The notes under the pieces were generated by a model. It did not search any database. It worked only from the letters and a program-made list of their open reading frames with translations, and was not told the DNA's origin. From positions 1 to 64,000 of the forward strand of contig JAVVFY010000003.1 in the NCBI GenBank assembly GCA_032249395.1: 64,000 bases of DNA. Direction: 5' to 3'. Source of the stretch: Candidatus Aenigmatarchaeota archaeon (lineage in GTDB: Archaea; Aenigmatarchaeota; Aenigmatarchaeia; CG10238-14; SpSt-28). Numbering within the stretch: position 1 is the first letter of the stretch; the number at the start of each line of letters is the position of its first letter. Made by a program: the position numbers and the translations under genes. Of the stretch, positions 10,236 to 50,118 are shown piece after piece.

Positions 10236-10264
10236 GATTATTTATTCGAAATTCAATGTAAAAA

Positions 10265-11169: not shown

Positions 11170-11211
11170 TGCATATATAATTTTATATACGTGCATATAT
11201 AATTTTATATA
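11170..11211. promoter_or_regulatory. Tandem 20-bp direct repeat, putative operator of the HEPN-MNT operon
   Basis: TGCATATATAATTTTATATA at 11170-11189 and 11192-11211 (22-bp period); each copy contains the near-palindrome TATATAA-TT-TTATATA. Confidence 0.6.
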
Positions 11212-21200: not shown

Positions 21201-24200
21201 AGCGAATACTTGTGTTGAATTTAAGTTAGCCTCTAATCCATAAACTGGAGTTACGTTTATGTTGAAAATTACTGGTGGATAAATATCCTTAACCCAGAAC
21301 ATTGCTCCGCTTGTTTTTCTGTAAGCTGAATAATACTTATCGTTATCATCTGTTATGTTGCACAAGAATGTGTAATTTCCTTTTTCATATGGCTTGAATT
21401 GATAGCTTGCATATCCGCTTGAATTAGTTTTTAGAGTATCTAAGTAGATGAAATCGACATTTGGTTCAATCTTGTAGTATAAGCTAACATTGTAATCGGC
21501 TATTCCTCCAGCGTAAGTATCTTTAACCATGCATGTCACGTTGAATTCTTCTGGATATGGCAAAACTGTATCGTTTAGAGGAGATATCCAAATGACGTCT
21601 GCAAGACTGTTTATGTATATTGTAACATTAGCTTTACCATCATCATAATAGCTCTTTTTAGCAACCGCCATTAGTGAATGTCTACCAGTAGATTGTTGTG
21701 CCACAAAGGACTGAGGTATAATTGTTGAGATTCCTTCTACCAATTTGCTTGTTTCATTCCACCATTCTACAGTTAAGCCAGTTTCATTTAGATAATCTAA
21801 TGTTTCTCCATTTTCGCTAATAACATTAACTTCGACAGGAATTGATTGAGCTTTAGAGAAGTATGAGTTGTTTCCTGGTAAAATGATTGTTGCATATAGA
21901 ATTCCTTTTACTTGTATGCTTGTATTTACAGTTTCAGATGGCTCGTTAACATCTCTCGTTGCGTTTATGTATATTGTTACCAAGCTTGGAGTAAAGTTAT
22001 CTGGGAAGTCGAGGTTAATTAAAGAACAATAACCAGTTGAATTCGTTAAGCAACTACCAATATAATTGTTAAACATGTAGAATGAAACGTTTGCTCCACT
22101 TGCGTCTCCGATTTGCGCATCTCTAACGTGAACTGTTATGTTAGCTTTGTTTGGAACGAACGAATCGTTTCTGTAAATGAATGGTGGTGCAATAATTTCA
22201 TCTATTATCAAAGGTCTTTTTAGAGTTATTATTATGCTTGATTGAGGGATAGCCGGAGTGTAAAAGAGTGTTGAATTTGTTTCTATTCTACAACTAACAT
22301 TATAGTTGCCTGCTGGCTCTCCAAATGTATTCCAACCTATTTGTGCATAGCCGTCTGAATCACTCAAGCTACTTCCAATCAAAACATCATTCTTGAAGAA
22401 CTTCACTGAATAGTTGGAGATTGGTTGAGAAGTGTTGAAATCTAAAACTCTACAAACTAGATTTATCAATGATCCTGACTCTACTGTAGTTCCGTTTGAT
22501 GGTGAGACAAAGTTTACTCTAGACCATCCGTAAATATATACTGGAGTTGAATTGAAGTTTGAGTCAAAGTTGGTTTCTGAAACATTAACATATATTCTTT
22601 CGAAACCTAACTTGTATGATGTTGGAGTTAACCATGTTGTATTTTGACCGCTAGCTAACAAACTCCAAGTTGAGTTGTACCATCTCGCTGTTGCATTTGG
22701 TCTTAAATTCAAGCACTCATCATAAACGCTAGCATTAAATACATTAACAACTCCTCTCTGCAATATTGAATTAGCAGCTGGATTTATTATAGATACATTT
22801 AATTGACCAATAACAGTTAGAGTTCTGTTAGTTGAGTTTACTTGTTTATAGCAAGCATCTCCACTTTGGGCGAACCAGTATTGAATTCCTTCTTTTGATG
22901 AACAATCTGGATTATAATAAACTGTACAATTTCCGTTCGATGAAGTGCAGTTAAGGAAGTAATCATAGTTTCTACCATCTCTTGTAATCCAAATTGTTAA
23001 GTTAGCATCACTTGGATATATTCCTCTATCAGAATCGTAAACGATTGCTCTCAAATATGCTAAGTTATCTCCAATTCTTCTTACTGTGGTTGAACTATCT
23101 GATGCTAAATTAATCGTTACATCATCTTTCTCAAAAGTTATATTCAAGCTGGCACTTGTATCATTAAATCCATTAACATCTACTGTAGTAACTTTAAAGA
23201 AGACTGTTGAATTTGTAAGATAATCGCTACAGTCAAATCTCTTTGAAAAGCTAACAGGATAATCGCTATAACTTGGAGTAACAACTTTAGAATCAACATA
23301 AATCCAAGTTACATTATCATAACTCTTCCATAGTGTCACATTGTTTGGACTTGAATCTGTATCTGTTATTCTAACGTTGAAATTGTACGATTCTCCCCAA
23401 CCACCATAGTAATGATCTATTGTAAATGAAGTTATTGTTGGCTTAGATGCTACGAAGAATGCGTTTGGTTTTGTTATTGTAGTGTATGACGGATATTCAG
23501 AGTAATAGATTTTTCTCGCCATCATCTTTATAGAATACCAACCAAATGGCTTTCCGCTTGTATCAAAAGTACAATTGTATGTTCCATTGCTCATATCGTA
23601 AACAGGAGTACAGCTGAATTGATTTGTACCCCAAACTCCGTACAATAGTACATCAGCTCCGTTTACATATTCGCATTCGTCATACACTGAAACGTAGAAT
23701 GGTGCTGTGGTTCCTCTTAAGAACGCGTCTCCATCCGGATAATCTACTCTCAAGTTAATTTGTGATTTTATCGTTATTGTAAAGTTGGAGGAAGATGCCG
23801 GCTTGTAATAATCATCACTAACAATAGCTGCTTTCCAATATTGAATTCCTGTTTTGTAGAGTGGATTGCAACCTGGATCAAATTCAAAAGTAGCATAACC
23901 TGTACCGTTTGAATATACAATAGTTCCTGAATCAAAGATGCTTCCATTCAAAGTTACGAAGAAGGTTACGTTAGCGTCGTTAGCTGGTTCTTCTCTATCT
24001 AAATCATAAACATAAACAACAAGCTTTGCTATATCAGTTCCGTTTCTCCAAACTGAAGTTCCATTACCAGCTACAAGAGAAATGTTTACGTCGTCTTTTT
24101 CAACGAAGAAGCTGTGTATGCTTGTGTTTCCAACATAATTTCTTATATCTTCGGCTTCAAAGTAATAGTACCATTCTCCTTGTTTTGTTTGAAGGACTGA

Positions 24201-27200
24201 TGGATTCTTGAATGTTAAAGTTATCGTTTTGTTTATTGCTCCATTTAAATCTGGATTGTCTATATAACTACTTGAATTTGCAAGTATCCAAGTTGATTCA
24301 GTAGCTCTCTTAATCCAGAGTTTTAGTGAAAGTGGGTCTAGATCTTCATCAGTAACGTTAACTTTAAACGTCCAAGTCTCACCCCATCCACCAGTATCTG
24401 TTCCGCTCTTTGACAAAACTTGCTCTCCAGTTAATATAGGCATTGTTTTGACGTATATTATGTTTTCTGTCAATAGGTAACCATTGTTGTAGAATTGTTT
24501 TTGGGCAGAAACACTTATGTTGTAATATCTAGCTCTAATTAGAGATGTGTTTATTGAACATAAGTACTCACCATTTCCAAGAGAAACTACTGGAGAACAA
24601 TTGAATATTGTTCCACTTTCATGAATTAGATTTATTGAAACGTTTGCATCACTAACGTCTAATCCAACATCATTAGTTACTTTAACTCTTATTGTTATGT
24701 TGTCGTATGGTTTTAGGTATTCTGTATATACTGAAGGATAGAGTAACTGAATGTTCAAATCTCCAAGAATTGTCAAATATTGTTCTGTCGAATTATTATC
24801 TTGATAGCAAGCATCGTCATAAATTCCTCCTTTCCATTTTTGAACTCCAACTGAGTAATCTGCAGATGGATTAAAGTAAACTAGCAAAAAGCCATTGTCA
24901 TCTGTTACATTTGATGTTCCATAATCGTAATTATTTCCGTCTAAAGTAACGAATATTCTTCCACTAAAGCCAGAAGATATGTATGAGTTTTTGATTGTAT
25001 CTTTTATTCTAACTCCCAATAAGGTTGTTTGATCGCCGCTTCTATTAACAAAAGAGTTGTTACCAATGTAATACTCGCTTATTGTTGGATCTTTAGTTAT
25101 AGTTGGTCCTATAGTTTCTGATGTATTGAAAACGTTTTCTCTAGTTCCATCATCAATTTCAAATTTGAAGTAAGTCGTGCTTGATATATCTGAGCATGTA
25201 AAATCAGTAACGTTAACCACGCATTTTCCTCTTCCACCTGTCAAATTATACGATCCTTTATAGACCCATCCACCAGTAGTTTTAACATAAAGTCTACAAG
25301 TAACATTGTCTTGCCGATGATCATAAACATCAACACTGTAACTGAAGATCGAACCCCAACCACCTATAGTTGGAGTGACGCTTAAGTTTTCAGCCTGTGG
25401 AGGCGTGTTGTTAAGATAAAACCAATTTGCAAATATTGTTGAGTTTGGATAGTAGTTAGGTTTGCTTGCATTTATTCTAAAGCTGTATAATCCTCCAATG
25501 TGGAAAGATGTATCCCAACTCGAATTATAATAACCATTTCCTAAATCGAAAACTGGTGTTATTGTTTCTGCCTTGTTATCTGGTGAAATAGCTTCATGTG
25601 TCACAATAGCTCCGGATATCAATCCTTCATCTGAACAATCAGAATAAACAAATGAAGTAACATTTGCTGCATCACCAACAATAATTTGAGAGCCTTGAGT
25701 TGGAGAAGCAATACCAACTTTTAGTTGACCTGTAACATTAACAGTAAAGCCATATTCTGGCACTGTATCTTTGTAACAGACATCATTCTCAATACCAGCT
25801 TTCCAGTTTTGCATTCCAACTCCAATGCTACAGTTCGGATCGAAGTAGAATGTTAAAATACTACTAGAATCTGTTTGATTGACATAATATCTTATGTAGC
25901 TAGAAGTGTCTCCACTTGAGCCTAAGCTTCTGGTAGTTACATACAAGCTACCATTTCTTCCTGCACCAACCAAAACATTTCTGTCTATATCTCTAACCAA
26001 AACTTTAATTGTAACAAAATTGCTACCTTCTCTTCTTACTTGCTCGCCAGCACCAGCTACATATTCTATGCTAACATCATCTTTCTTTATGTCTATTGTG
26101 CTGTTCTTTTGATCCGAATAGCCCCAAACATCAGTCGCAACAAACTTGTAGGCTCTAACTCCTATATCATCACAAGAGAAAGTATCATAAAATGTTACTA
26201 ATTGAGGAGTCTCTGCTTTTATTATAGTGGAATTCCTCAATACCCATCCGCTTGATAGATTTACATATAGAGAAACATTAACATCATCATTATCCTGATC
26301 ATATATCCAAGCTTCAAATTTCCAAATCTCTCCCCAAGAACCATCTCCACTTATTGAGTAGCCAGTAATTGATGGAAAGCCTTCTGGAGTAATTATTGGT
26401 TCTGTTGCTAGGTAAAATGCATTTTCTTGGAAGTCTGTACTTGAGTTATAATACATCTTTGAAACTTCTACACTAATGTTATGCCAGCCTGTTGTCCAAG
26501 TTGTTGTAACATATGCAGGAATTGTACATGAATAAGTACCATTTCCATAGTCCACAACATCGCTACAAATGTAGTTTCCGTAGTTTGGATCGTAAATGTA
26601 GAAAGTTAAAGCAGCCCCACTAACATAGCCACAATCGTCCTTAACCTCAGCATAAATCTTTATGTCATCTTTACCTCTCACTGGAGCATTCCAAGGATAG
26701 TTGTTGATTGGTGCTGTTATGTTTACTTTCAATGGTTCTGTAACTATATCAAATCTTACTACTGAAGAATTCTTTATTTCCCAAGCGTATTGTGTTGTTG
26801 TATTAAATGTTCCTGCAATCCAATATTGTGGTCCAACTGAATAACTACAATCTAAAGTAACGCTTCTTGAAACATAACCTCCGCTCGCTATGTATAATGT
26901 ACCAGAATCTATGAATGTTGAGCCGTCTTTAGTGAAGTATATCTTTGCTGTTCTTCCTCCTGGAAGAGGAGCACCTGTATCAGAATCTATCATTTGGGCT
27001 CTATACTCAATTGGAGAACCTTTCATCGCACTTCTGTTGATAACAACATCTACTGGATTTATAGGAATGATAGTAACATTGTCTGGATTTAAAGTCAAGT
27101 ATAGCCAGCCAGTATCATAAATATCTTCTGGTAGACCCGCGGGAGGATTATCTGTAACATTAAACTTGAATTTAACTGTTCTGTTTCTATTGAAATCATC

Positions 27201-30200
27201 TTCATTAAATATTCCACTCATGTTAAAGTAAACTTCTATATTTTCTCCACTAACAGTTTGATTTATAGCAACTTGTGATGGATCTGTAGTTCTTCCTCTA
27301 TCTACATATAGTCTTAACCAATTAGTGTCTAGATCTTCATCAGTGAAATTAACTTTGAATAACCATGTCTCTCCCCAACCTCCATCTCCAGATGGTATTG
27401 CAACAGGATTGGAAAGAATTGGACTTGTTTCAATCCAGAATGCTCTGTATTTTGTTGTTGAGTTGGCATTGTAAAATGTTTTATTAGCAAATGCTGTAAT
27501 GTTGTACCATCTAGCAGGCAGTATTATTGGTGAGGATGTGTTAAATGTACAACTGTAATAACCACTTCCTTCTTCAACAACATCATCACAAGTATAATTG
27601 TTCAATGTTTTTTCTGATCTCATCGTAAAGTTAACAGTTGCTCCCCTTAGAGCAACGTTACACTCATCAGTTAATAGAGTTCTAATTGTTATATTGCTTC
27701 CTCTCAAATACTCTTCTCCATTTGGCAATACTATCTTTGGCAAAATATCTCCGATTATATAAGTTGTAAAGTCTGTTGTGTTTATGTCAATATAGCAAGA
27801 ATCTGTTACCCCAGCTTTCCAGTATTGTAAGCCTGTTGAATAGTTACAGTCGGGATTGAAGTAATAAGAGGCATTTCCGTTAGCTTCTGTCTTGTTGCTT
27901 AAATCGAATTGATAATTGCTTCCATCTCTTGTGACCCAGAAGCTAACGTTAGCATTAGGAGCATAACTGGAATTTTCTAGGTCAAAGACATTTACTTCAA
28001 ATCTAACAATCTGATTAACTCCTGAGCTTCTGTTAACATAGCTACCATTTCCTGCAATCAATGAAATGCTAACAAAAGACTCTCTCAATTTTGGAGCATT
28101 TATTGGAGTTGTGTTATAGTAGTTAGATTGTTCCCCATCTCTTATCTCAAACTTGAACCAGTTATTGTTCCCAATATTACTACAATCAAATCCATGATAA
28201 ACGACGCTACAAGTTCCTTTAGTTGGAATGCCAGGAATTCCGTTTATTATGCTACTACCAACATAATTCCAAGTTATTCCATTGTCTTTGCTAATGAATA
28301 CTCTACATTCAACTGTATCACCTTCTTGATCGTAGATATCTGCTGTAAAGTTGAACTTATTAGACCAGCCAAAATAATCATCGAAACCAACTTTTTGCCA
28401 GGAATTTATAGAGTTGTTCCAAACATAGACGCTAAAGTTTTCTGCAGTAGCATTAACGTTCTCTAACCAGAATCTGTTTTGATATGTAGTTGAATTGAAG
28501 TTGTATAATGGCATTAAAGTAGAATTCAGTCTTATGCTCCAATAACCTTCTTTTTTACCAGTAGAATTCCAAGTACAGTTATACCAACCATTGTATTCGT
28601 TCATTATCGGATTGCAAGTTTCTGCCTCTCCATATGGAGAAATCAGTTCTATACTAACGCTTGCATTTGGTATTAAACCTTCAGACGAACAGTCGCTAGT
28701 AGTATTGAATCTAATTGTTATTGGTTGAGTTACGTTGAAAATACTTCCGTTAATTGGTAATTCTAAGTTGTTCTTTAATTGACCTGTAATGTTGAAAGTC
28801 GGTGGAGCAAAAGGACCACCTGCTCTTTGAGTATAGTTTTCAGCAATATAGCAGGAATCTATTATTCCTGCATCCCATTTTTGAATTCCCACTGAATAGC
28901 TACAATCTGGATCTAGAACATAGCTAATGTAGCCAGAGGAATTTGTCGTTACAGTAAATACAGTGTTAAATGTACTTCCATCTTTTGTAAAGTAGAATAC
29001 TGCCAACTTTCCTTCTGGTAAGTATTCATCTCTATCTAAATCTTTAATCCTCATCACAAAGGTTCCTTGAGTATTTCCTATTTCTCTATCAATTCTTGTT
29101 GGTGCAGATACGTAGTAAACCTCTACGCTATCTGGCCTTATTTCTATTGTATCAGAACTTTCGTTAGTATAGCCCCAATCGTCAGAAACGTTTATCTTAT
29201 AGTTCCTCACACCAATCTTTGAGCAATCAAATGTTTGTATAAATGAGAATAATTTTTCGCTAAAACATGTTGGTGCTTGACAAACAGTTGAGTTAACCAA
29301 TTCAAAGCCATTACCAAAATCAATCCACAGAGAGATGTTTAGTCTTTCATTAGAGTAAGCTCCTTGATCTACATCTCTAACTATTGCGGAGAAATTCCAA
29401 ATTTCACCCCAACCAAAGTTATTATCTGTAATTAAACAATCTCCAGATCTACATTTAGTTGTTGGTGGTAACAAAGTAACTTCTGGGTTTGTTACAATAG
29501 CGAAAGAATTAACTATTTTGCTTTCTGGGGAATCAACATAATTCTCTTTACTAGCGTACATGCTCAAATTATACCATTGCATGCTCCAATAGCTCGATGG
29601 ATATACTGTGCAAGAATAAGTACCATTTCCATAATCTACAACTTCATTTGGTGGACAATTTGATGATGGTGAGTTTTGAGATGGTTCTGCTATGAATGAA
29701 ACGCTTGCATTGCTAACATAGCCACAATCGTCTTTAACTATTCCTACGTATGTTATGCTATCTATTCCTCTTCTGAAAGTTTTTGATGTTGGTTGCAAGA
29801 GAGTAGCATTCAAAGGATAGCTAACTAAAGTTATGTAGAAGTCATCTCCATAAACATAAGTTGAGTTTATTGGCTTGTATGCTCTGTTAGCTGTTCCAAA
29901 TTCTACTCTCCATCTCAAAGTTCCTAAGTTATAAGTACATCTTGGTAATGATGGGAATGTGTGACTTGTATAACCGTATGCTCCTATTGTCAAGTAGCTT
30001 CCATCTACAACAAAACTATTTGGATCGTATGGATTTGTGGTTACATAAAATCTTATTGGGCCTGTAGTTCCTACTGGCAATAGAACATTTCTATCAGTGT
30101 CATACACTAAAATGCTAAATGTAATGTTATCTTCACTTGGAGCTAGACTTCTGTTTAGTATAGTATTGTTTCCAAACACAATAGTTATGTTAACATCATC

Positions 30201-33200
30201 TGGTTGAACAGTAAATGTAAATAAGCTTGTATTAGCTGAATTTATACCATCTGTTGTGTTGAAGAATGCTTCAAATGTTGTTCCTGCACACGCTGAACTA
30301 AAAGCGTTTGGAGATGGGAAGTCAAATATTATTAGACCTGGCTGAGTTAATCTGCTTGCTTTTAGATAATAGTTTGGCCATTTACTCGCTTCTGGACAAG
30401 CTGGATCAGCTATTGTTATATTTCTTATCCACAAACTAACATTGTTGAAATCTGAATCTTCGTCAGTCAAAGTTACTCTAAACTGCCAGCTTTCTCCCCA
30501 ACCTCCATCTTGAGAATAACTGTAAGCTGGACTACTTAAGCTTGGTTTTGTAACTATGTAGAAAGCGCAGCCGCTAGCTGCGCATAGATTTCCTATTGTT
30601 GTTGTGTTGGAATTATACCATGGAACATCTTTTGAAATCATCGTTAAAGTATAGCTTCTTGGAAGCTTGCTTGCATTATTAACAAATAGACAATTGTAGT
30701 AGCCATCACCTTCATTGTTAACAGAATTGTATGGTTCGTCACAATAGAATGTATTTCCAGTTACAGTATGAGTAGCATAAAAGCTAACATTAGCGCTTGA
30801 TAGCAAGCCTTCTTTAGCAGAACAATCTGTCGTTACATAACCTCTCCAAGTTATATTTTCTTCATCTCTAATGAACTTGTCTTTAGTAGTGTTTGGAGAT
30901 GTAATGAAATTCAATAATTGACCAACAATCCCAATTGTATAGTTTTCACTCGATGCAAAATGATAACATTCTCCACTAGGTATAATTGTTGATTTATAGA
31001 ATGCTTTCCAGTTTTGCAAACCAACGTTAAAGCTACAGTTTGGATCAAAATTAAACGTTACGTTTCCTGGTAAGCTTGAATAAGTTCTATTGCTTCCAAC
31101 AAACAAGAAATTGCTCCCATCAAAAGTTACATTGAAACCAATTTCAATTTGTGCTGTTCTATCGCTACCTACAGGTCTGCTTCTATTAAAATCAGTTACA
31201 TATACTCTTAATGGCAAATATCCAAAAGCTCTTGTTATGTTTGTGTTGTTTCCAGAAACTAAAGATATTGAAATGACATCTTTATCTATTATTGGTCCGT
31301 AATTTGTTGAAGTGTTCGTTTGACCTATAACGTCAGTCAAATTAAACCTAAACCAATTATCGCTACCAACATCATTGAAAGTATCGTTACAAGTGTATGG
31401 TTGTATGTTCTCAAATCTACATGTTCCACTTCCTCCACTTATAATTTGAGAACCAACATACCTCCAAACATTGCCATTGTCTGTTGAGACGAACAAACTA
31501 CAATTGACATCATCTCCATCTGTATCTAAAACATCTATGCTAAAGTTGTATTTGTCACCCCAACCTCCAGCAGATGGAGTAACTTGTGGATTTGAATATC
31601 TTGGTGGTAAGTTGACTATTTCAAACCAATTCGAATATGTTGTTTGATTTGAATAGAAGTAGTCTTTAGCTGACTGCAAAATTATGGAATATAATCCTGG
31701 CAATTTTCTTGTTGTGTTATACTCACAATAGTAAGTTCCGTTGTTGAAATCAGTTATTGGTTGACAAGCTTCTAGAGAATTGACAGGATTTTGTATCAAT
31801 ATTGGATTTGTTATGCCTTGAGTTGAATTTGGAACGCTTGGTGTTTCTTCACTTATATAACCAGAACAATCGCTTTTTACATCCATAACTATTGGAATCA
31901 TTACTCCAGTACCATTAACCCAGCCCTGTGGAGGATAGTTTAAGTTACTGTAAAGCTGACCATAAACATAAACGCTGGCGTTACTTGTTCTTGAGTATCT
32001 ATAGCAAGTATCATTTAACTCGATAAACCAAATTTGTCTTCCTGTTGTATAATTACAATCTGGGTCGAAATAGTAGGTGAATAGACCATCTGAACCTGTA
32101 TATATTTCTATAGGATCTCCAAAGTTATTTCTGTCTTTTGTAATGTAAAGATACCCTTTAATTCCAAGATCTGTGGCATAAGTTCCTCCCTTTGACCAAT
32201 CTAGTATGTAACCTTGCAATATTGCTGTTTCATATCCAGGTCTGTAAACACTAGAGCCATCTCCGCTTTGAATATAAACATCAGCCCATTCCTTATCTAC
32301 AGTAAATGTTTGTTTTGAAGACTCGCTCTTCAATCTATTATCATAAACAAAAAGATTATCAGTAGCGTTGAATTTGAATGTATGAGTTCCTATATCTGAG
32401 CAACTAAATGATGTAGTAAATACTAGCGCATCAGAGCCTTCACAGGGCGGAATACACGTCATTGACCCAATATATTCCCAATCACCTGTTCTATTAATCC
32501 AGAGGCTAACGTTAACCAAACTTCCTAATTCTCCTGTTCTGTCTTCATCTTCAACATCAACTTTAAACTGCCAGAGATCTCCCCATCCATTTGTAAAGTT
32601 TCCAGCAGTAACATAATAGCTATAAGTAGTCAATGTTGGCCTAGAAGCTAAATAAAATGCATTAGTTTGTTGAGTCGTTAAAGAGTCGTTGTAATATTGT
32701 TTACTAGCATTTACACTAACATTCCAATATCCATAAATTAACTCGTAGTTAGAGTTCAAAGTTGAGTTCGTTATATTACAAGCATATGTACCATTGTTAA
32801 AGTCTACTACACTACCAATAGACCTACATTCTCTGATGGTATCTCCTCTTTGTATGTAAAAGTTCGTTGTAGCACCTCTAACTCCACCACATTCGTCAGT
32901 AACATTCGCCACTAATATCAAATAGTCTGCTGGTGTTGGGGACTTTATGTAAATCTTACCATCTTTTGGAGAAATATAATTAACGTTTAATGTATCTGTT
33001 ACGATTGTTATAGTAAATTCTGAGCTGTTTGTTGGTTTGTAGAAGGGATTGCTATCTAATACTCCAGCTTTCCATTTTTGAGGTCCTATTGCAAAAGAAC
33101 AATCTGGATTAAATTGAGTTAGGGATGTGTTTATATATCCTCCTGGTGAAATTGATGATGTTCCACTAATAGTAATATAATTGTAGAAATCTGTCGTTAC

Positions 33201-36200
33201 AAAAATTGCTGCTCCGGGAGAACCAATAGCATATTCTCCTTTATCTACATCGTATACTCTGACAGTAAGAGTTTGTATATTGTTTCCTGGTCGATAAACT
33301 GATGTGCTGTTTCCGACAACATGCTCTATTATCACATCGTCTTTTTTGTAGATTAAGGTTCCATTGTTTGTCTGATATACATTTTGTGGAAAGTCTTTAG
33401 TTTGATTTCCAAAAATGTCTTGATATTCGCTAACGTTGAACATAAATGCGTGTGGACCTACAGCAGATGGAGATCCTAAGACAGTAGGAGATGGTAGTCT
33501 CAACATAAAAGTAATAGTTTTATTTATTCCCCTATCGTATGCAGTCATATTAGATGGAAGTTGATACCATTCTCCATTATCAGTTCTATTTATCCAAAGC
33601 TTTACTTCAAGCAAATCATCGTCTTCGTCAGTAATGTTGACTCTAAATACCCAAAGTTCACCCCAGCCTCCATCTCCCACTCTCCCAAGAGAGTCATAAG
33701 AAATTGTATAGAAGTCTGTTGTTAGAATTGGCTTTGTTTCTATCCAGAAACCTTTTTTCCAAATTTCAAAAATCTCTAAAGTAGAATTGCTATTGTAGTA
33801 ACTTTTGCTTGCGTTAAATGTAACATTCCAACCTTTAGCTCTAAAGCCAGAAGTGTTTAAAGAGCAGGTGTAGTAACCATTTCCTAAATATTCTACAGGA
33901 TTACAATAGTTAACTATAGAACCCTGAGAAACGGAGAAATTGGCATTTGCATAAATTCCACCTTCAATCTCACAATCTGAAGTTATTCTTGCTGTTAGAT
34001 TAACGTTTTGACCATCTGGATAATCTCCTCTCAAATACTTTTCTCCTTTAGGTGAAATCACATCTAAAACCAAATCTCCATAGACTTCTACTGTATAGTT
34101 TTGAGTTGGAGTTGTATTTGTATAAGTTTCAAAGTAGCAAGCATCATTCTCTACTTTAGCAAACCATGCTTGTTTTCCTGTTGAGAATTGACAATCTGGA
34201 TTGAAATCTAAACTTGCATATCCACTAGAATTTGTTTGAGTGTAGTAAGGTTTGAAATTGGTTTGATCATAAGTAACATAGAATGTTAAGTTTGTGTTTG
34301 CTAATGGCAATGAATTTCTTGTTAAATCTAAAGCTCTAATAACAAAACTGACAGTGTTTCCTATGTTGCTATCAGATCTATTAACTTTTGCTCCATCTCC
34401 ACTAACAAGAGTTAGAGAAATTGAATTCTTTGTTATAGCTGGGCCAATTGAAATTTCGCTATCTGATGTGTTAACTCTGTTGAAAGTATCGTTTACCACA
34501 AAGTAGAAGCTTGCTATTCCTTGGTCTTCACAGGTGAAATCGTTAACTTCAATATAACAAACTCCTGGAGTACTTATGGTTTTTGAACCCTTGTGAGCCC
34601 AATTGTCATTTGTTTTTACATACAAACTACAAGTTACAGTATCGTTTTCCGGATCTTCAACATAAGCTGAATAATTGAATAAACTTCCCCAACCTGCTGC
34701 ATTTGGTGTAACATTCAAATTGCTGACAATTGGAGGCCTATTCTCTAACCAGAACCAATTAGCAAATGTTGTTGTGTTAGTGCTATAATAAGTTTTTGAA
34801 GCTTGTATTGTTATGTTCCAATATCCTTCTGCTTTTGATGTCGAATCCCAAGTGCAATTGTAGTTTCCATTATCTTCGTTTATTGGAGAACAACTTGAGG
34901 AATAGCTTCCGCTACTCAATGTTAGCACGTTTGAAACTTCACTTATATTTCCTGAATCTCTAACGCTTGAATTCAAATAGCAATCAGAATAAACATTCCA
35001 ACTTATGTTTATCTTATCTCCAACATTGAACGTTGAACCGTAAGTTGGCAAATTCAAATTAATGTTCAATTGACCTTTTATTATAAAGCTTGAGTCGCTC
35101 GAATTTGCATCAAAATAACATTGATTACTCGCTATACCAACTTTCCAAGATTGATAACCAACATTGTAGGAGCAATCTGGATTGAAATCATATTCTAGAT
35201 AACCAGAAGCATTAGCATATACAAGATGGCCTTCATCATAAATTCCTGTATCTCTTGTGAACCAGAAGTATCCTTTAACATTTTCTTGACTCAAATCTAA
35301 CCAAGCATTCTTGTCAACATCATAAACTCTAACAACAAACTTTCCATAATTATTGCCATATCTCAAAACTTCTGATGGTACTGATATTGAATAGAATGAA
35401 ACTGTATCTTTTGTTAGCGTAACTGTTATCGGAGATGTCTCATTTCTCAAGCCATATGAGTCGCTAACATTTAGCTTTAGCAAAATTGTTGAGTTTATCA
35501 AATATTCGCTACAATTGAATGAAGGATTAAACTCAAAGTAGCATGTTCCCGTACAATCGCTTGAACTCTTTGAATCAACATAAACCCAATTTACTCCATC
35601 GTATGATTTCCACAAGCTTATGTTTACTGGGTCGCTTGGGTCTGCATCTAAAACTAAAGCACTAACCAAAAAGTAACTTCCCCAACCACCAGAGTCTCTG
35701 TTTATTGAATATGAAGTTATAGCTGGCTTTCTTCTAACTTGGAAAGCATTTGATTTGTATGAATAAGTATCGTTGTAATACTGTTTGCTAACGTTCATGC
35801 TTATATCATACCAACCTATTAGACCAGAACTTGGGAATGAACAAGAATAAGTACCATTACCATAATCATTTACTGGAGAACAAGTTGAATGAATTGGTTC
35901 TATTGTAAATATTGTTGATGTTCCACTTACTCCAGAACTACAATCATCAGAAACATTCCCAACAATCAATATTGGATCTCCTTCTGCAATAACATTTCCA
36001 TTCGGTTGTAATATAGATGAAGTTAAGCTTCCGTAGATTACAACAGTGTAGTTTTGCGAGGCATTGCCAAAGTAATAGCTATCTCCATCAAAAGCTGCTC
36101 TCCAATTCTTTACTCCAACGGAATATCTACAGTCTGGGTCGAAGTTTAATGTAGCAAAGCCTGAAGATGTTGTTGTTCCGTATCTTATCCAACCTGAGTC

Positions 36201-39200
36201 TGAGCTAACGTTTATGTATGTTGTGTCAGAACCTTTATCTAATGGTAAATTCGTGAAAGCATCATACAATCTTGCTTCCAATATTGTTGTGTTTGTTCCA
36301 ACTCTACTAACCCAAGAATTGTTTCCTTGTGAATATACCCAATAAGTTCTTCTCTTCGTTACATTAAATGTTTGAATACTTGTTTGAGCTACTCCACCAT
36401 AATTATCGCTAGCGTTTATGAACCATTCATAACTTCCAATATCACTTCCTGAAGTGTAAGATTTTTGTAGAGTTACCGTTACATTTGTACAATTGTTACA
36501 AATTGTAGAAGCTGCTAAACTAAATGCTCCATCTGGCAACTTTCTTATCCATAAGCTAACGTTAACAATATCGTCTTCATCAGTAACATTAACTTTGAAT
36601 GTAAATGTTGAACCCCAAGGAGCCTCTGTTGGAGTTACTGATGGTGCTACTAAAACTGGTGGAACTTCATGGAAGAAAGCGTTTTGTTTAACTTTTGAAG
36701 CATTGTTGTACAAATCTCTAGAAGAATACATGAAAACTGAATACCAACCAGGAGGATTGTTTGAAATATTCCAAGTGCAAGTGTAATATCCGCTAACATA
36801 AGATGCAAAACAGTAATCTTCAAATGCTCCATGCTTTACTTTGTAGAAAACATTAGCATCATTTATTGGATTATTGCATTCATCATTAACTAATCCGCTT
36901 ATCGTCACGTTTTGATTTGATAAGTAAGCTTCTCCATTTGGCTGAGAAATCGTGTTGTTTAGCCATCCTTTAATGTTTACAGTTAATGTTAAAGTTGAGT
37001 TTGCATTTTTGTAACAAGCATCGTTTACTATTCCTGCTTTCCAATATTGTGTTCCAACGTTATAAGAACAATCAGGAGTAAAGACAGCCGAAAGATAGCC
37101 ATTATCTCCTGAAGCTTCCCATGCACTTCCATAATTTACTCCATCATAAGTAACCCATATCTTACCGCTAACATATCTATCTACAAATTGTTTATTGTCT
37201 CTATCGTAAACCTTTATTTTCAGAGTTACACCCTCGCTTCTATTAACCCAAGAGTTATTTCCTAAAGAGTTTGAATCGTAAACGAAATCAACATCGTCTT
37301 TATCTAAGTTAAAGCTTATTGGTGCCATATCAGTCGTGTTTCTTGGATCTGTTGCGTTGAACTTAAAGTAATATGTTCCTATATCGCTACAAGTAAAACC
37401 AGAATAATAAAATGTTAACTCTCTTTTGCTTCCACAATTGTAGCACATTTGAGATGAAATGTAATTCCAATTTACCCCATCTTTAGATAGCCATAAACTA
37501 ACGTTAACATCATCAGCATTGGCATCGCTTACATTGACTTTGAAAGTGTAGTTTTCTCCCCAACCCCAATCGTCCTCTGGAAAAACTGTTGCATCTTCTA
37601 AAACTGGAGGTTGCCAAACGTGAATTATTCTAAATACAGAAACATTTGTGAAGCTTGCGTCGTTATAATAAATAACATTAGAAGCGTTTACTCTAACATT
37701 ATACCATCCTTCTTTTGCTTCAGTAGCGTTGAAAGTACATGAATAAGTTCCATTGCCATAGTCTTGAACGTTATCACAATTATAAACATCACCAAAACCA
37801 ACGCTTATTGGTTCTATTGTTACTGTTGCTCCACTTATGTTTCTCAACTTACATTCATCTTGAACAAAGACGCTTATGTTTATGTAGAGTTGATTTTCTC
37901 TGTAGTAAGTAATTCCATTAGGATAAACAACAAATGGAACCAAATCTCCTATAATCGTTACATTGTATGCTTCGCTGGAAGCATCTTTGTAGCAAGCGTC
38001 AGCTTGAACATAAGCTACCCAATTTTGCCTTCCTGCATCATATCTGCAATCTGGGTTGAAATTGTATTCTACATATCCACTTGAATTTGTAGAGTTGCTT
38101 CCATCTGTTATAAATGCTGTTCCATTGAAAATGTTAAACCAAACTCTCGGATAGTATTGAACTCCTATTTGAGAGAATGCTGGAGAATTCTTATCTCTAT
38201 CTAAAACATAAATCATGAACTTTGTCGAATTATTTCCGTTTCTGTTAACATAACTTTCGTTTCCTAAAACATAGATTAGAGAAATGTCATCCTTTCTCAA
38301 AGTATGAGAAATGGCGCTTGTGTTTGAATATGTCTGTGGAATATCTGGCTCACTCGCATTAAACATGAAATATCTAATAGCTGCTTGCTGATAATCTGAA
38401 CAAGTGTAATCTCTAGTAAAGTTAACCAAAGTGTAACTTGGATTTTCTATAAATCTACAATCTGTTACTGACCATGGTCCATCTGAAGATGTAGACTCTA
38501 ATAAGCAAACGTTTACGCTAGCATAATGATTAACTATAACGCTGAAATTGTGAATTTCGCCCCAAGAACCATCGTTTGGATACTCAACTTTTGGATTGAT
38601 TAACTCTACTGGTTTTATAAGGAAGAAAGCGTTTTGTTTAAATGATGAAGCATTCAAATAGTATTGTTTTGAAGATTCCATTGATACATTGTACCAACCA
38701 CCAGATTTTCCTGTAGTATCAAACTCACAAACGTAAGTATTTGAAGTGTTTGTTATATAGCCTGAAGATGGACAATAATATTCGTTTGAACCAGAAGTTA
38801 GTTTGAATCTAATGCTTGCATCGCTTATTGGATTCCCACAATCATCATAAACTTCTCCAATCAAATAGATTTTTTCTCCAGCAGTATAGTTTCTATCTCC
38901 AGTTGGAGAGATTATACTGTTTGCTAAACTTCCAACTATTATAACATAGAATTCTTGTGAACTATTGCTCTCATAACAAGCACTACTAACATTAACCTTC
39001 CATTTTCTTAATCCAACTGAATAAGAGCAGCTAGGATTAAAGTTTATGAAGTAATGAGTTTCGTTTGAATAAACAATTTCTTGCTCCCAATTAACATCAT
39101 CTTTAGTTACGTAACCATAAACTTCGTCAGTTGAAATTTCAGTTGTGTAGTTTCCAAAGACTAAATTCTTTATTCTAACCGTCAAATTAACAGTATTTCC

Positions 39201-42200
39201 TATCACGCTATCGCTTCTGTTAACAACACTATTATTGCCAGAAGAATAATCTATGGAAATTGGAGTTTTTGTTATGTTGAAAGCTATTACCTGAGTTTCG
39301 TTTTTGAAGGTTGTTGGAGAAGTTGCATTGAATTTGGCATACCAGCTTCCTATATCGCTACAATAAAAGCTTTTCTGAGTAAAGAATTGATAGTTGTTAC
39401 AATTTACGCAAACGCTTGAATTTTCTAATTGCCAATTAGAATTTTCTCTTTTTAGCCATAAGTAAGTGTAAACAGGTTCTCCATCTTCACTTGTAACATA
39501 AACACTAAAGTTGAATGGATTTATTTGCCAGCTTCCTTTTGGATATGGAGAAACTTGAGGATTATCCAGCTTTATGTTTGACGCAACGAAAAATGCATTT
39601 TCTTTAAAGTAAGTTCCATTCCAGTATTTACCAGCTTCGCTTCCTTCAGCAAAAGCTATCATCGTAACGTTATACCAACCAAGAGGAGCATCTTGTGGAA
39701 TTGTCCATGTTGTATAAGTTAGTGGAGCAACTATAGTATAAACTGTGGAGCCGTGAGAAATTATATATTCTACTCCAAAAGATGCACTATCTGTTTTAAC
39801 TAAGCCACAATCATCTTTTATAATGCCATCAAACTCAACAACTTGTCCTCTAGTATAGTTTCTAGAGCCATTTGGATAAAGCATGTAAGAATTGCTTAAG
39901 TCTCCTATCAACCAAAATGGTATTATTGGTGTCACATTATCTTTGTAAGTTGAAGCTCCAAAAACTCCTCCTTTCCAATAGTTTTGCCCCAAGTAATAAT
40001 CTGAAACTTTACACCAACTATCAGAAGTATTTTGCATTGTTCTAACTACATAACCTGTTGAGTTTGCTGAGAGAGATGGAGAAATATCAAAAGTTTCGTT
40101 GCTTCCGTATTTTGATATAAATATTCTTGCTTTTCCTTCATCTACTTGACCGAGCTGCAAATAGTAAGGATAGGTTTGATTGTCGATATCAAAAACAAAC
40201 ATAGTGAATTCAAAAGGCATGCTTCTGTTAACAGTTGCATTTAATATTGGCTGTATTCCAAAAACGCTTATATCGTCCTTTTCAATCGTATAAGCATATC
40301 CTAAAATTTCTGATGAACCATCTGCATTAGTTGCATTGAATTTGAAACTCCAAGCTCCAATAGCGCTTCCATCATATTTGAATGAAAAGTTTAGTTGAGT
40401 CCATTGCAGACAATTGTAACAAACTTGAGAACCAATCAACGAATATTCACTTGCTCCCATTCTATGCCAAGCATAAACAATAACATCTCTTCCAAATCTA
40501 TCTCTCACATAAACTCCAAACTTATAATTCTCTCCCCAACCTCCAACATTTCTAACTTGATCGTCTATGTAGAGAGTAGCATTGGTTAATAGTGGCGAGT
40601 ATTTATAGATTTTTGATTTAACGAACAAGTTTTGAGTTTCATTGAAGAGTTTTCCAGTAGACCAAACATAAGCAATTTTCTCTATGCTAACATTTGAGTA
40701 AGGATTGGTGCTTGAATCTGCATAAGTATCTATGAAAATATTTCTCAAAGAATTAACAAAGTTTGTTGAATCGTTGCTGTCAATTGAATAATTGCTCCAA
40801 ACTTTTGATAAAGCTAATGAATGAGAATAATTTTGCCAGAATATTCTTTTGTTCAATAAATCATCTGCAATTGAAACCTTTGCCTCAGCGATTGTTAGAT
40901 TTTCATCTCCAAAACTATAGTTGATTAAAAATGCAATTTCTTTCATTTTTTCATATCTTGCGTTAATTGGTTTTGTAAACACGAATGGATAAGTTAAGCT
41001 ACAAGAGTTTCCATAACAAGAAATTGAAGTATCGTTAACAAAATAGCTTTCGCTTCTCGTATCCAAAATTCCTTCAGCAACCAAAACTTTCTTTCCTTCT
41101 AATGAACAATTCAAAGTGAAGTTTAAGTAAGAAGAAGAATATACACTCAAAGATGGTAAGCTCCAAGATATCTTTCTTGTTGATGGATTGAAAGTTCCGC
41201 CATTATAAACATTTAAAACGTCGCACTCTTCTGGAATGCTTAAATAAACGCTCCATCCAGAAGCTGTTGTATCGCCAATATTAGTTACTTTAAGGCTGTA
41301 ATTGTAAGCTCTGTTTAGTTGAGAAGATCTTACTTCTGGCCATGGATATTCATCTTGCTGTATTGCCTCTATATCGAATGATAGATGAGACTCTTGATTG
41401 TAAGAAGCTGTTGAAACTGTAAATGGATTTTCTTCTTCAAAGCTTTTTCCATCCCAACTAACATTAAACTTGAAGCTTCCAGTTTTCGAATAAATATTTG
41501 GTGCTTTTACTTGATAAGTTAGAACTGCATACTCATTTACATCAATGTCTCCAAGATTCCAAATTACCAAATTGTTTATCAAATCTACTGAAGAAGAAAG
41601 CAACTGAACGCTGCTCCCATAAACGTTTGTTTTAATGCTTGGATTTGCTGGAGTCCAACCACTTTCCAAAGTCTCAATTATTGTTGCACCAGAAGCTTTA
41701 GCACATCCTTTGTTGTGAACTACTAATCTACTTTCGAAAACTTTATCTGGTGAAACAAATGGAGGAGTTTCTCTTATGACTTCAAGAATTGCTATTGAAT
41801 TGCTTTCTTGAATTTGGAAAGTTGCTGTTTTTGTTTTTTGAGTTATGTGATTGTAATTAACAATTGCTTGAATGTTTGCCAACTCGCTTGTTGAATTGCT
41901 CGAAGTTAAAGTGAACTGAGCATAATACTTTCCGGGAGTTATTGCTTTAACAAGTTGATAAGATGGGGTGAATGTCCAGCCAGTTGGAACAGAAAGAGTT
42001 ACATTGTAATCTATTTCTTCGTTGAATGGATGATATATTTCTACAATGAATGGTTCGCTAGTGGAATTGCACATCCAATTGCTTCCTTTAGCATTAACAG
42101 TAACGTCTTTAATGGTTAATAATTCAACTCTAGTAGAAACGTTTGAATTGTAAACAAATGTTGCAATTATATTGTAATTTCCTTCACTCCAAGCTTGAGT

Positions 42201-45200
42201 ATCAATGTTTGAGAAGTTTGCTATGTAACTAGATTTTTGATTCAAAAGTAAAGGTGAGCTAGATGAATAAACAACATTACCATAAGCATCTGTTATGTTT
42301 AAGTAAAGCGTTCCAGAAATTTGTTGGTTGAATGAGTTTGAAAGAATTACAGAAATGTTCAAGTATCTATCTGTTTTTTCCAATCCTTTTACAGAAATGC
42401 CATTAACGTTTGTATCTACATCTTGAATCAAAACAGTTTCATTGTAGTAAGCAGAAAGCTTTAGGCCAGAAATGTTTACAGGATTGTCACCAATGTTTGT
42501 AATTCTTATTTTGCAATAGCCAGTTTCACTTGGCTGAATTTGTTTTTCTAATATTGGAATGAAGAGAGAAGATGGAGAAGTGAAGTAGAGAGAATGAGAA
42601 ACATCTAACCAATAAGTTCCGTTGTAAACCTCTATTCTAATTTTTCCATCTTGCAAGCTTGAGGAATAAGTGGAAATTGAAAGATTAGCTATTCTGTAAC
42701 TTCCAGCTTCACAAACAAAATTGAACTCTTTAGCTTCATTTGAATTGAGCAAATATGGCAATTCTTCTTGAGAAAAAGTTTCACTCATGAACTTATAAGT
42801 AAAAACATTTATCGTTAAGCTATCGTTTTCGGCGTTGCTTGAATTAACAAATATTATTATTTGGTTTGACGAATAGGTTGTTGGGTAAATGTTGAACCAA
42901 ATTGTTTTTAATTCTCCAACGCTAACATTTCCAACATATTTTGTTGTTGAATCTGCTTGCCACCCAGTTGGCAAAGTCAAATTAACATAAACATCATTCG
43001 CTACAGTACCGCTTGGTCCCAAAGTTCCAACTGTAACTCCAAGAGTGAAGTTTTTGTATTGGAAGGCTTCTTTTGGTTGTTTGATTTCTCCTATTTTTAT
43101 TTGAGGTTTACAACCAGAAGTATCTATTGAAATGTTGAAGTAGCTTGTTGTGTATGGCTTGTAATATGGCTCATCTGAAGCTATTTCAGCATACCAATAT
43201 TGATCTCCGCTAGAAAAGCTACAATCTGGAGTAAAGTAGAATTCTGCGTATCCAGAAGAGTTTGTTATGTTTGATCCTATAATTTTATCGTAAAGGCCAT
43301 TATACTTTATTCTAAATGTAACAGTTGCTGCCGGATTCAAATTGTAGGTTTGTGCATCTAAATCGTAAACTCTAACAACAAACTTAGCTGATTGAGCAGG
43401 AGAATATTTAGCAAAGCTATTGTTACCTTCTACATAGCTTATATTAACATCATCTTTTTCTACAGTTACATACAAAACTTGAGTAGTTTCTGCCCCATCC
43501 ATCTTAAACTGATAATACCAATTTCCTATGTCGTTTGCAGTAAAGTTTCTATACCAATACTTTGTTGAATTTATGCAATTGGAGCATTCATTCGGAGTTT
43601 GATTTATGCAAGTTGGGGCTTCACATTTGAATATTGGCGGCCATGTTTTTCCCATATACAAGCTAACGTTTAGAACGTTTTCTGAATCACCTGAAGAAGC
43701 TTTTACCGAAAAGTTCCAATTTGGATAACCCCAACCTTCAGATAGTGGATAAGCTTGTGGATTTTCCAATTTTTTGATTGGCAACAAGTAGAACAAGCCA
43801 GGATATAAAGCATTAACTGTTGAGTTGGGATAATGATAATCTTTACTTGCATACATTGTTGTGTTGTACCAGCCCATTGGAGTTAAAATATCAGTTTGCC
43901 AATCGCAAGTGTAAGCGTTAGCACCTACTTGATATACTGGCAAACATTCAAAGCTTTGAGTTGATTTATTAGCAAAGAATCTCACGTTTGTTGTTAATGC
44001 ATCTCCACAATCATCAGTAGTTGCTCCTAAAAAGCTTACTTTTTGTTCTTGTGTGAAGTTTGTCGTACCATCTGGCTTTTGGAAGTTTAAGATTATATCT
44101 CCTGTAACCAAGACTGAAAGATTGACAAAATTTTCTGTTGAATTATCAAAGTAACAAGCATGACCACTAACAACTGCCTTCCATTTCTGATATCCAACTT
44201 GATATTTTGGCGAGCATTTTGCTTGGAAGTAGTAATTAGCATAAGCTGATTCGTTTGTTGAATTAGTTGTTCCAGAATCGTAAATGTTTCCATCTAATGT
44301 TACGTAAAATGTTACTGGCAAGTTTGTTATTAGAGTGTTATTCTTATCTCTAACCCTCAAAGCAAGCAAAGTTGTTGTTTTTCCTCTTCTCGTTTCTGTA
44401 CCATTGCCAATAATATCTTCAAAGAATATTGTGTCTTTTGTTATTGTGAATGTTGTTGAAGTTGAGTTTGTTGTTCCTGCATTGTTTGTAGCGTTAAACT
44501 TAACGAAAACTGGAGAACCTATATCGCTACAATCGGCGTCAAACTCAAAAGTAAAGTTTATCCAATCTCCAGTATTTCCAGCACCTGGAGCAGGATAAAC
44601 ATCACAACCTACTAACCTCCAAGGCTCTGAACCAGTTTTGCTAAAGTATGAGCAAACTTGAACATCGTTTTCTGAATTTGTAACTCTAACGCTTACATTA
44701 AAAGTAAAGTTGAATCCCCAGCTTCCAGTGGAAGTTCCTGTTTCTTTTGAAATTACCAGTGGATTTTCCATTTCAATGGTTGCTGGTGGTAAGCCAACTA
44801 AAACATCATTGCAAGACATTACTTCAGTTGAATTTTCAGTTGAATTTGCTCTTATGCAAATTGTGTAAGTTCCTGCAGTATTTGCTGTAATGTTCCATTT
44901 TGCTTCTCTAATTCCGTTCAATTCTATAGTTCCAAGGTAATTGACGTCACTTAAATCACCAGTAGCATTTCTAATTTCTAAAACTCCTGGGCCAGTGTAA
45001 TTTATTACAGCAATAACATTGCTTGCGTTTCCTGGGCCAAAGTTTGTTATTGTTGAGCTTGCATTGAAAGGCTGATTTAAAAATGGATTGTTAGGAGAGA
45101 AGCTTGGTTGACTAACTGTTAAACTTGCTCCACATGCAATGAAAATATCATATGGTTCGTCTAAGAATGTGAATGTTCCGTTTGTTGGAATTGCTTGAAA

Positions 45201-49532: not shown

Positions 49533-50118
49533 AAGCTACTCTCACCTTTATCTCACTTTCTCCAAGTTTCGTTGATAAATCGCTTTTAACAGAAAACTCT
49601 AACTCGCAATAAGAGTTTACTTCGATTACATTGCAAACTTTTTCTAAGGCGTCTGTCGAAAATCCTTTCGGCAAATCGACAGATACTCGAACGTTTGTGG
49701 CATTAGCACTTCCTTCATTGCTAACAACAACTCTTAACAAGAAACTCTCTCCTCTTGTTATTCTGCTTTTATCGGTGCTTAATCTCAAAGAGATTTTTGG
49801 TTTTGCGATAATTTCTGTTGTTTGAGAAATTTGCGTAGCAGATGTCGAAACGTTTTCACTTGCTCCATTTTCTTCTGTGCTATTAGATTCATTCATTTGA
49901 GTAAGTTCAGAAGAAGTTGTATTCGACGAGTCGACAGATTGTTGTGAAGTTGAGTTTTCAGAAACCAAATTTGTCGAAGCTGACTGTTCACTCGAATTTT
50001 CATTTGTTGTCAAATTTAGTGAGCTGTTCATAGCTTCTTGAGCAATCGACAAGTAGAAAAAGAAAGAAAAGGCTAAGAAAATTGCCAATAAAGCTAGAAA
50101 TTGGGCTTTTCCCTTCAT
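49525..50118 (-). CDS. Exported protein: signal, S/T/N/Q-rich linker, single DUF11/CARDB-like Ig domain
   Basis: MKGKAQ followed by a hydrophobic stretch; low-complexity linker; 'VVVSNEGSANATNVRVSVDLPKG'; 8-bp overlap with the start of the giant gene. Confidence 0.8.
   Translation of the reverse strand: MKGKAQFLALLAIFLAFSFFFYLSIAQEAMNSSLNLTTNENSSEQSASTNLVSENSTSQQSVDSSNTTSSELTQMNESNSTEENGASENVSTSATQISQTTEIIAKPKISLRLSTDKSRITRGESFLLRVVVSNEGSANATNVRVSVDLPKGFSTDALEKVCNVIEVNSYCELEFSVKSDLSTKLGESEIKVRVAYE

Follow-up and report, generated by a model that had tools for sequence, protein, structure and literature searches.

A three-level hierarchy of predicted Ig-like repeats in a giant protein of an Aenigmatarchaeota archaeon

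Giant repeat proteins and the Aenigmatarchaeota locus

The A-band region of titin is made of immunoglobulin (Ig) and fibronectin type III domains arranged in super-repeats of 7 and 11 domains, and the period of this arrangement matches the thick filament. Here, we describe an array with a comparable organisation in an archaeal protein. It is encoded by the first 64,000 nucleotides of contig JAVVFY010000003.1 (assembly GCA_032249395.1), a stretch hereafter called the window, from a tiny DPANN archaeon of the phylum Aenigmatarchaeota. The array sits in the middle of a single open reading frame (ORF) on the minus strand (15228-49532), which encodes 11,434 amino acids (aa) and has its lone stop at the 3' end. 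An earlier note on this DNA, made from the letters alone, had proposed a titin-like hierarchy of domain, three-domain unit, and three-unit super-repeat. The hierarchy proved real, and the classes of units and their order recur in 11 orthologues. We read this region, with a probability of about 0.7, as the central shaft of a giant, membrane-anchored, and heavily N-glycosylated surface protein, a stalk that is lengthened by whole super-repeats.

The A-band super-repeats of titin, as far as one published account describes them (PMC10665226), likewise have three nested levels in which a domain is most like the one a super-repeat away. Their conservation is position-specific across super-repeats and orthologues, as is the case here (PMC10665226). 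There is no sequence relationship between the two proteins: titin is eukaryotic and intracellular, whereas this protein is archaeal and extracellular. It also differs from titin in that what repeats is already a unit of three domains, copy numbers differ among close relatives, and no periodic partner is known. Bacterial Ig-like fibrillar adhesins such as invasin, FdeC, MpIBP, and SiiE have the role we propose for the array, that of a rod giving reach. In MpIBP and SiiE, near-identical repeats are stiffened by calcium. The units described here are instead 20-39% identical and have covarying pairs of cysteines across domain borders.

In the tiny genomes of DPANN archaea, several percent of the sequence goes to giant surface proteins, which are thought to mediate contact with the host. 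The 'SPEARE' proteins of nanohaloarchaea have a signal, about 75 Ig-like domains, a membrane span, and a VirB4/TraG-like ATPase (PMC10266531), and a role in host binding, perhaps also in effector secretion, has been proposed for them (PMC10266531; Hamm et al. 2019, cited there). In their published layout, they share with the window protein a DPANN symbiont as host genome, a length of about 9,000 aa or more, an N-terminal signal, and an ATPase of the VirB4/TraG/HerA kind; the descriptions, compared by layout, mention no unit, super-repeat, or cysteine staples (PMC10266531). At 11,434 aa, the window protein exceeds them in length, and it comes from another phylum. The long middles of such proteins are usually dismissed as 'many Ig-like domains'; here, the middle has an exact and conserved grammar.

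According to the summary of one survey (PMC1553488), the growth of domain repeats mostly involves several domains at once and takes place in mid-array. The block expansion that Bjorklund, Ekman and Elofsson described in 2006 is multi-domain and mid-array, like that of the inner super-repeats here (PMC1553488). The repeats in what that survey reports are mainly eukaryotic (PMC1553488), whereas the block found here comprises nine domains and comes from an archaeon with a genome of ~0.75 Mb. In prokaryotes, the array is a clear case of this pattern, which has been described above all in eukaryotic proteins. Giant DPANN surface proteins and block-duplicated Ig arrays are known kinds of objects. 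What appears to be new is the grammar of three levels, together with copy numbers of 3n+1 and cysteines that are coupled across domain borders. We came across no description of this Aenigmatarchaeota family, nor of super-repeats in any surface protein of archaea, in literature searches that covered few subscription journals.

Units, unit classes, and copy number

We anchored the unit boundaries on the tryptophan of a (G)GWG motif. This delimits 18 consecutive units, U01 to U18, from aa 2987 to ~9025 (22458-40574, minus strand, as are all the features of the giant gene given below), which amount to 54 predicted Ig-like domains. Consecutive units are spaced by 311-364 aa (mean, 336). A further two, E01 and E02, precede the array at aa 1593-2247 (42792-44756), for the total of 20 already counted in the earlier note. 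A search with a profile of the unit over the whole assembly (752,806 bases) retrieved these 20 units and no others. The same profile run on the giant protein returned the same 20, a circular check because it was built from them. Past U18, there are a few partial matches that cover only domains B and C.

The units align over their full length, and so do the signatures initially given for each of their three domains (A, B, and C). Positions W13, G14, R120, D132, C177, G182, W186, Y196, P220, C241, Y272, and F308 are invariant or nearly so. Each domain has a conserved aspartate (D24, D131, and the one before C240, respectively) in the turn that follows its second strand. In the earlier note, the rod was taken to be stiffened by calcium as well as by disulfides; these D.D turns resemble the V.V.D..G.P hairpin that is ordinary in Ig-like domains of bacteria. 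The 18 units share 20-39% identity in pairwise comparisons. At the DNA level, the mean identity between units is 44.6%, and third codon positions are identical in 38.0% of the cases, against 31.8% expected from composition. Third positions are thus near saturation, which makes the copies old, in line with the suspicion that the expansion was an ancient one. Tandem Repeats Finder reported only short low-copy repeats in the giant gene; its longest period is 500 bases, which makes it blind to periods of 1 kb and 3 kb, and we compared the units at the codon level instead.

The units are most alike at a fixed distance, as in titin. The mean identity is 31.7% between units three positions apart, 30.9% at lag 6, and 29.5% at lag 9, versus 27.8% at lag 1, 28.2% at lag 2, 27.5% at lag 4, and 27.7% at lag 5. 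Permutations of the order of the 18 units gave z = 5.6 (p = 5e-5) for a period of three, with z = 6.1 over units 6-17, and nothing for periods of two, four, or five. The signal is absent from units 1-6 taken alone. The phylogeny of the 20 units inferred with IQ-TREE concurs with the identities and the permutations in showing, as had been remarked, that every third unit is more alike. It separates a class a (U07, U10, U13, and U16; support 97/96), a class b (U08, U11, U14, and U17, with U05; 80/87), and a class c (U06, U09, U12, and U15; 94/97). These are exactly the three sets of units that the earlier note had singled out, and the motifs it gave as their markers return among the class-specific conserved columns. 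There are seven such columns for a, three for c, and one for b, and the markers are C32/C59 for a, the consensus GGWGE...TDED.D for b, and GQLK/SDC and WF.L.N for c.

The 13 units from U05 to U17 (23436-36653) form a strictly periodic run (b c a b c a b c a b c a b). U04 (36654-37598) is an a-like unit, sister of class a (support of 85), and the conserved last unit, U18 (22458-23435), makes a clade of its own (100) that is sister of class c (86). Because the U04-like clade is sister to a and U18 is sister to c, we count five super-repeats in the window array, U04 to U18, in the register a-b-c. One of these, U13-U14-U15 (a-b-c; 25395-28403; 1,003 aa), was folded as a whole (see below). U01 to U03 (37599-40574) fit no class, either in the IQ-TREE tree of 20 units or in the FastTree tree of 139 units described next, and each has its own positional orthologue in the relatives.

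To place the classes in a broader set, five complete orthologues (G081, G024, G150, G140, and G061) of 11,428-14,236 aa, with 20-26 full units, were fetched, and we built with FastTree a phylogeny of the 139 units of the six complete proteins, including that of the window. Clades a, b, and c have supports of 99, 92, and 97, and each contains units of all six proteins. The 73 adjacent labelled pairs of units in the five other complete proteins all follow the order b-c-a, and the classes keep a strict cyclic order in all 11 orthologues examined, which come from other Aenigmatarchaeota genomes. The hierarchy is thus stronger than could be seen in the earlier note, since the classes and their order are conserved in all these orthologues. 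The run from b to b always has 3n+1 units (12 of 12 proteins). Repeat counts in homologues were a check suggested at the outset, and the length of this run ranges from 7 to 19 units. There are seven units in G209 and G063; 10 in G091, which is from the genus of the window, and in G288; 13 in the window, G081, G220, G006, G078, and G150; 16 in G024; and 19 in G140 and G061. The number of super-repeats thus ranges from 2 to 6 between relatives and varies even within genera, e.g., within that of the window (runs of 13 and of 10). This natural series could show whether the length of the stalk matters for the symbiosis.

The tree also informs on how the arrays changed in length. The units of the window and of G081 pair one-to-one (support 97-100). 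Positional orthologues in the four relatives with 20 units are 35-82% identical, versus 20-39% between units of one protein. Since positional orthologues are closer than units of the same protein, there has been no homogenisation between units, and each has kept its identity. Conservation with respect to positional orthologues is 74% for E01, 65% for U01, and 43-61% for the periodic core. The first and the last super-repeats are positional orthologues in all six proteins of the tree. The inner ones of G140 and G061 group by lineage, in all three classes and at matching positions; therefore, blocks of three units underwent duplication midway along the array. In the scenario that we propose, the array would have been already built in the common ancestor of several families, with unit identities kept since then, and its length would change solely by gain or loss of whole super-repeats in mid-array. 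The likely cause of the strict period, i.e., of the length steps of three, is that only units of the same class are alike enough for out-of-register recombination. At a level above the super-repeat, three proteins (G024, G150, and P0009) have a second copy of a larger N-terminal block, which consists of E01-E02-like units, a spacer of ~740-1,070 aa, and U01-U02-like units.

Fold, cysteine pairs, and family of the unit

We modelled U04 (315 aa) with AlphaFold2, giving the 20 units as the sole alignment. The model consists of three beta-sandwiches, with a mean predicted local distance difference test (pLDDT) of 94.4 and a predicted template modelling score (pTM) of 0.79. Matches of single domains to known structures set the limits of A at 1-100, B at 101-210, and C at 209-315, and all three resemble generic Ig/FN3/PKD-like sandwiches (Z of 9-11, with 85-102 residues aligned at 2.1-3.0 Å). 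The array is therefore described here as one of tandem Ig-like domains as predicted by this model. It offers a defined unit of ~315-360 aa that is foldable and suited to structural and single-molecule studies.

The best superpositions of the whole unit are on elongated three-domain adhesin rods. They include FdeC (4e9l; Z 11.2, root-mean-square deviation [rmsd] of 10.0 Å over 268 residues), invasin (1cwv; Z 11.1, 6.5 Å over 272 residues), and 6xi3, a tetra-tandem repeat in the extending region of a large adhesion protein (Z 10.6, 7.0 Å over 278 residues). The titin fragment I67-I69 (2rjm) also superposes, with Z 9.6 and an rmsd of 7.5 Å over 259 residues. The idea of a rod gains support from these extended three-Ig structures, invasin and titin I67-I69. 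An Ig-like domain is about 4 nm long; assuming this value, the array of 54 domains would reach roughly 200 nm if extended, and one super-repeat roughly 36 nm. A Foldseek search of the whole unit against PDB was rejected as a means to name the family, since it returned generic Ig/MG strings (complement C5, IgLON, titin) with template modelling scores of 0.2-0.4; MpIBP (4p99) was among its matches. The three-unit model (U13-U14-U15) has a pLDDT of 87.0 and a pTM of 0.36: its domains are confident and its inter-unit geometry is not, and a shallow alignment (25 rows) of a long chain is itself expected to give a low pTM. Structure prediction thus succeeded for one unit, and it did not yield the helical periodicity that the earlier note had proposed.

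The segments may be held together by cysteines. We aligned the 553 units from all the fetched proteins to the unit profile and counted the cysteine columns. Cysteines occupy both column 69 of domain A and column 195 of domain B in 335 units and neither column in 214, and 4 units have just one of the two. For column 177 of domain B and column 240 of domain C, the counts are 502 units with both, 27 with one alone, and 24 with neither. Within domain C, columns 263 and 276 have both in 410 units, one alone in 10, and neither in 133. Domain A has two pairs of its own: 32/59, in class a only (both in 90, one alone in 15, neither in 448), and 51/55, a CxxC loop (173, 60, and 320, respectively). On the tree of 139 units, columns 69 and 195 underwent at least 13 changes each, with no discordant unit, and are hard to explain unless they act together.

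In the secondary structure of the model, column 69 precedes the second-last strand of A and column 195 follows the second-last strand of B; column 177 precedes the second-last strand of B and column 240 comes just after the second strand of C. Following the usual Ig topology, the loops that carry these cross-border cysteines would face the neighbouring domain. We think that the A/B and B/C pairs probably bridge the domain borders as disulfides and that the unit is a stapled segment of rod. The proposal that the rod is stiffened by disulfides thus gains support from columns that are gained and lost together, the bonds themselves being what we infer. No conserved pair joins domain C to domain A of the next unit among the 553 units, which fits the models, where pTM is 0.79 for one unit and 0.36 for three.

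The A/B pair also differs between classes. It is missing from all five b units of the window and present in every one of its a and c units. Over the six complete proteins, all 29 c units have it, as do 23 of the 29 a units and 9 of the 34 b units, and G061 has a different pattern.

The unit was said to lack a named family, and this is the case: neither a Pfam nor an NCBIfam model reaches its cut-off anywhere in the array, and NCBIfam gives nothing there. The sole Pfam name seen in the array when the full protein is scanned is Big_1, at 16.8-18.4 bits against a cut-off of 34.9. When the 20 units were scanned singly, the best E-value for any family was 0.001, and the weak matches were to Big_7 (PF17957) in five units, Big_1 (PF02369) in four, and Invasin_D3 (PF09134) in three. 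These sub-threshold matches come from domains B and C, and the units would not count as members of the three families at their gathering cut-offs. A profile search of the sequences in PDB gave one weak match, FdeC (E = 0.077). Searches of domain A in the ESM Atlas gave scores of at most 0.89 (clusters of DUF4625 and Big_7), which are leads only.

Among 1.84 billion representative proteins, the unit profile matches 1,057 clusters at E <= 0.001 and 352 at E <= 1e-30; many of the 1,057 are fragments from contigs. Fragments from this protein library show the same order of classes. Within the phylum, it detects the family in 124 of 301 sampled genomes (E <= 1e-10), and in 50 of the 98 of good quality, where Pfam and NCBIfam name nothing. 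The matching open frames in this sample reach 14,236 aa.

Membrane ends, alternative readings, and gene neighbourhood

The ends of the protein suggest how the array is held. Two hydrophobic segments at the N-terminus (aa 15-45 and 53-75 on the Kyte-Doolittle scale; 49308-49490) could be a signal or an anchor. A putative membrane-spanning segment lies near the C-terminus (~aa 11033-11070; 16323-16436), with a moderate score of 1.74 for its best 19-residue window. It is followed at aa 11093-11228 (15849-16256) by a predicted cytoplasmic P-loop ATPase that matches the DUF87/HerA central domain (Pfam DUF87, 46.6 bits for a cut-off of 23.2) and HerA_C (33.1 bits for a cut-off of 22). Taken at the level of predicted features, this is the SPEARE-like layout: an N-terminal signal or anchor, an Ig-like ectodomain, one C-terminal span, and an ATPase of the HerA kind. 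The ectodomain (aa 81-11040) has 484 N-X-S/T sequons, 4.42 per 100 aa versus 1.61 expected from composition, whereas the 360-aa cytoplasmic tail has none and, among the proteins encoded in the window, seven of housekeeping or cytoplasmic type have 0-1.0 per 100 aa. Nine positions of the unit carry a sequon in at least 40% of the 553 units.

About 5,000 aa of the ectodomain lie outside the units (aa 1-1592, 2248-2986, and 9026-11032). They are all-beta by composition and rich in sequons, and their Pfam matches are scattered: MG2/Filamin at aa 545-635, Big_7 at ~9006-9079, and NPCBM_assoc at ~9550-9625. These parts likely include those that bind the host.

The central shaft that we propose would thus have three levels: Ig-like beta-sandwiches of ~100 aa; units of ~336 aa made of three different domains, A-B-C, each probably one rigid segment because cysteine pairs bridge its A/B and B/C borders; and super-repeats of ~1,000 aa made of three diverged unit classes in the fixed order a-b-c. 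Its function would be that of a long stalk or spacer, which would hold the N-terminal parts, more conserved, at a distance from the cell and toward contact with the host, and its reach would be tuned in steps of ~1,000 aa.

Several observations weigh against this reading. Seven of the 11 orthologues were classed by best BLAST hit to the units labelled on the tree, i.e., without a tree of their own, and one unit of G061 falls outside the expected clade b. The coupling of the B/C pair seems less well founded than that of the A/B pair: on the 139-unit tree, its columns 177 and 240 changed one and four times, and 6 of the 139 units are discordant. We found no match to VKOR (PF07884) or to the DsbA-like family (PF13462) in the organism's own 89.5%-complete genome, and the pairs could be metal sites instead of disulfides. 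With its pTM of 0.36, the three-unit model lends no support to rigidity beyond one unit. Finally, if both N-terminal hydrophobic segments are in the membrane, the protein might be a loop and not a free stalk.

The last point leads to a different kind of structure, in which both ends are in the membrane and the array lies on or around the cell, or several copies form a channel (a 'straw') that serves the C-terminal ATPase. It would account for the hydrophobic segments at both ends, for the HerA/DUF87 ATPase right after the membrane segment, and for the conservation of a coiled-coil protein and of a 1,950-aa surface protein as neighbours in five of five other loci; secretion has been proposed for giant proteins described as having the same layout (PMC10266531). 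We nevertheless consider it unlikely. Nothing here points to self-association, the best structural matches are rods of single-chain adhesins, and a closed lattice would accommodate length steps of ~1,000 aa less readily than a stalk.

A further alternative is the molecular ruler suggested in the earlier note. The period of three units would then match a periodic partner or a helical self-assembly, with an equivalent site every ~1,000 aa, and would set a distance or a size. Class identity and order were kept over deep divergence, there are class-specific conserved columns, and the absence of the A/B pair from class b in the window is a structural difference with a period of three. The conserved positions of the titin super-repeats have been read as binding sites in the account cited above (PMC10665226). 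We think a ruler quite unlikely: super-repeats vary from 2 to 6 between relatives and within genera, which an adjustable stalk would explain no less well than a ruler of fixed length. There is no known candidate for the periodic partner, the cysteine pattern does not hold everywhere (the pair is kept by 9 of 34 b units, and G061 differs), and the geometry between units is not confident (pTM 0.36). Shared descent with in-register recombination explains the conserved order without any partner.

That the period is a neutral relic of one ancient triplication-type expansion, in a spacer whose details escape selection, is very improbable: block duplication is the usual route by which domain repeats are reported to grow (PMC1553488) and the near-saturated third positions make the duplications in the window old, but a stop-free frame of 34 kb that fills 4.6% of the assembly, in a genome with ~33% G+C, has been kept in many genera, its units are 35-82% identical to their positional orthologues, and its cysteine pairs are gained and lost only together, all of which argues for purifying selection on the structure of the unit.

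Within the stalk reading, one can imagine a segmented rod that grows or shrinks by fixed steps alone, each of its A-B-C units being a stiff segment with covalent staples. Class b, which in the lineage of the window lacks the A/B staple, would provide a soft joint about every 1,000 aa there, and selection, not only recombination, would maintain the order a-b-c. We regard this as rather doubtful. If true, the classes would differ in a mechanical or binding role in reaching or holding the host cell, and the array would be an independent prokaryotic and extracellular counterpart of the super-repeat logic of titin.

The assembly, 89.5% complete, consists of 25 contigs that total 752,806 bases, and the giant frame lies in DNA of ~31-37% G+C, in a genome of ~33%. 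The closest named relatives of the protein are from the same phylum: a query of 1,003 aa retrieved proteins of Candidatus Aenigmatarchaeota, with 56-66% identity, annotated as 'hypothetical' or 'DUF87 domain-containing'. The housekeeping genes around it are archaeal (FEN1/XPG, tRNA-intron endonuclease, DUF763, and thymidylate kinase).

The ORF that comes directly after the giant gene, on its downstream side, encodes a coiled-coil protein of 536 aa (13618-15228, minus strand), which occupies the same position in five of five other loci. Further downstream is that of a sequon-rich surface protein of 1,950 aa with NPCBM_assoc and MG2 domains (4383-10235, minus strand), a relative of which is also downstream of the giant gene in the five other loci. 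From these positions, the three genes look like a conserved cluster. On the other side is a sequon-rich protein of 197 aa (49525-50118, minus strand; 4.6 sequons per 100 aa) with an NPCBM_assoc/DUF11 domain. The 3' end of this ORF overlaps the start-codon region of the giant gene by eight bases, and because of this overlap the two are probably co-translated or co-transcribed. Weak relatives of the 197-aa ORF are found upstream of the giant gene in G081 and G140.

Three other loci of the window are worth mentioning. A ParA/MinD-type ATPase (12856-13617, minus strand) is encoded just downstream of the coiled-coil gene; it is likewise adjacent only in G024 (59% identity), and the other four loci have their matches elsewhere. 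Next come a HEPN-domain and a nucleotidyltransferase ORF (11211-12319, plus strand) that overlap by four bases, the usual arrangement of HEPN/MNT toxin-antitoxin pairs. Lastly, a 295-aa ORF that resembles LAGLIDADG endonucleases, is free-standing, and has a helix-turn-helix at its N-terminus (53689-54576, minus strand) adjoins a DUF763 gene and a tRNA-Gly gene.

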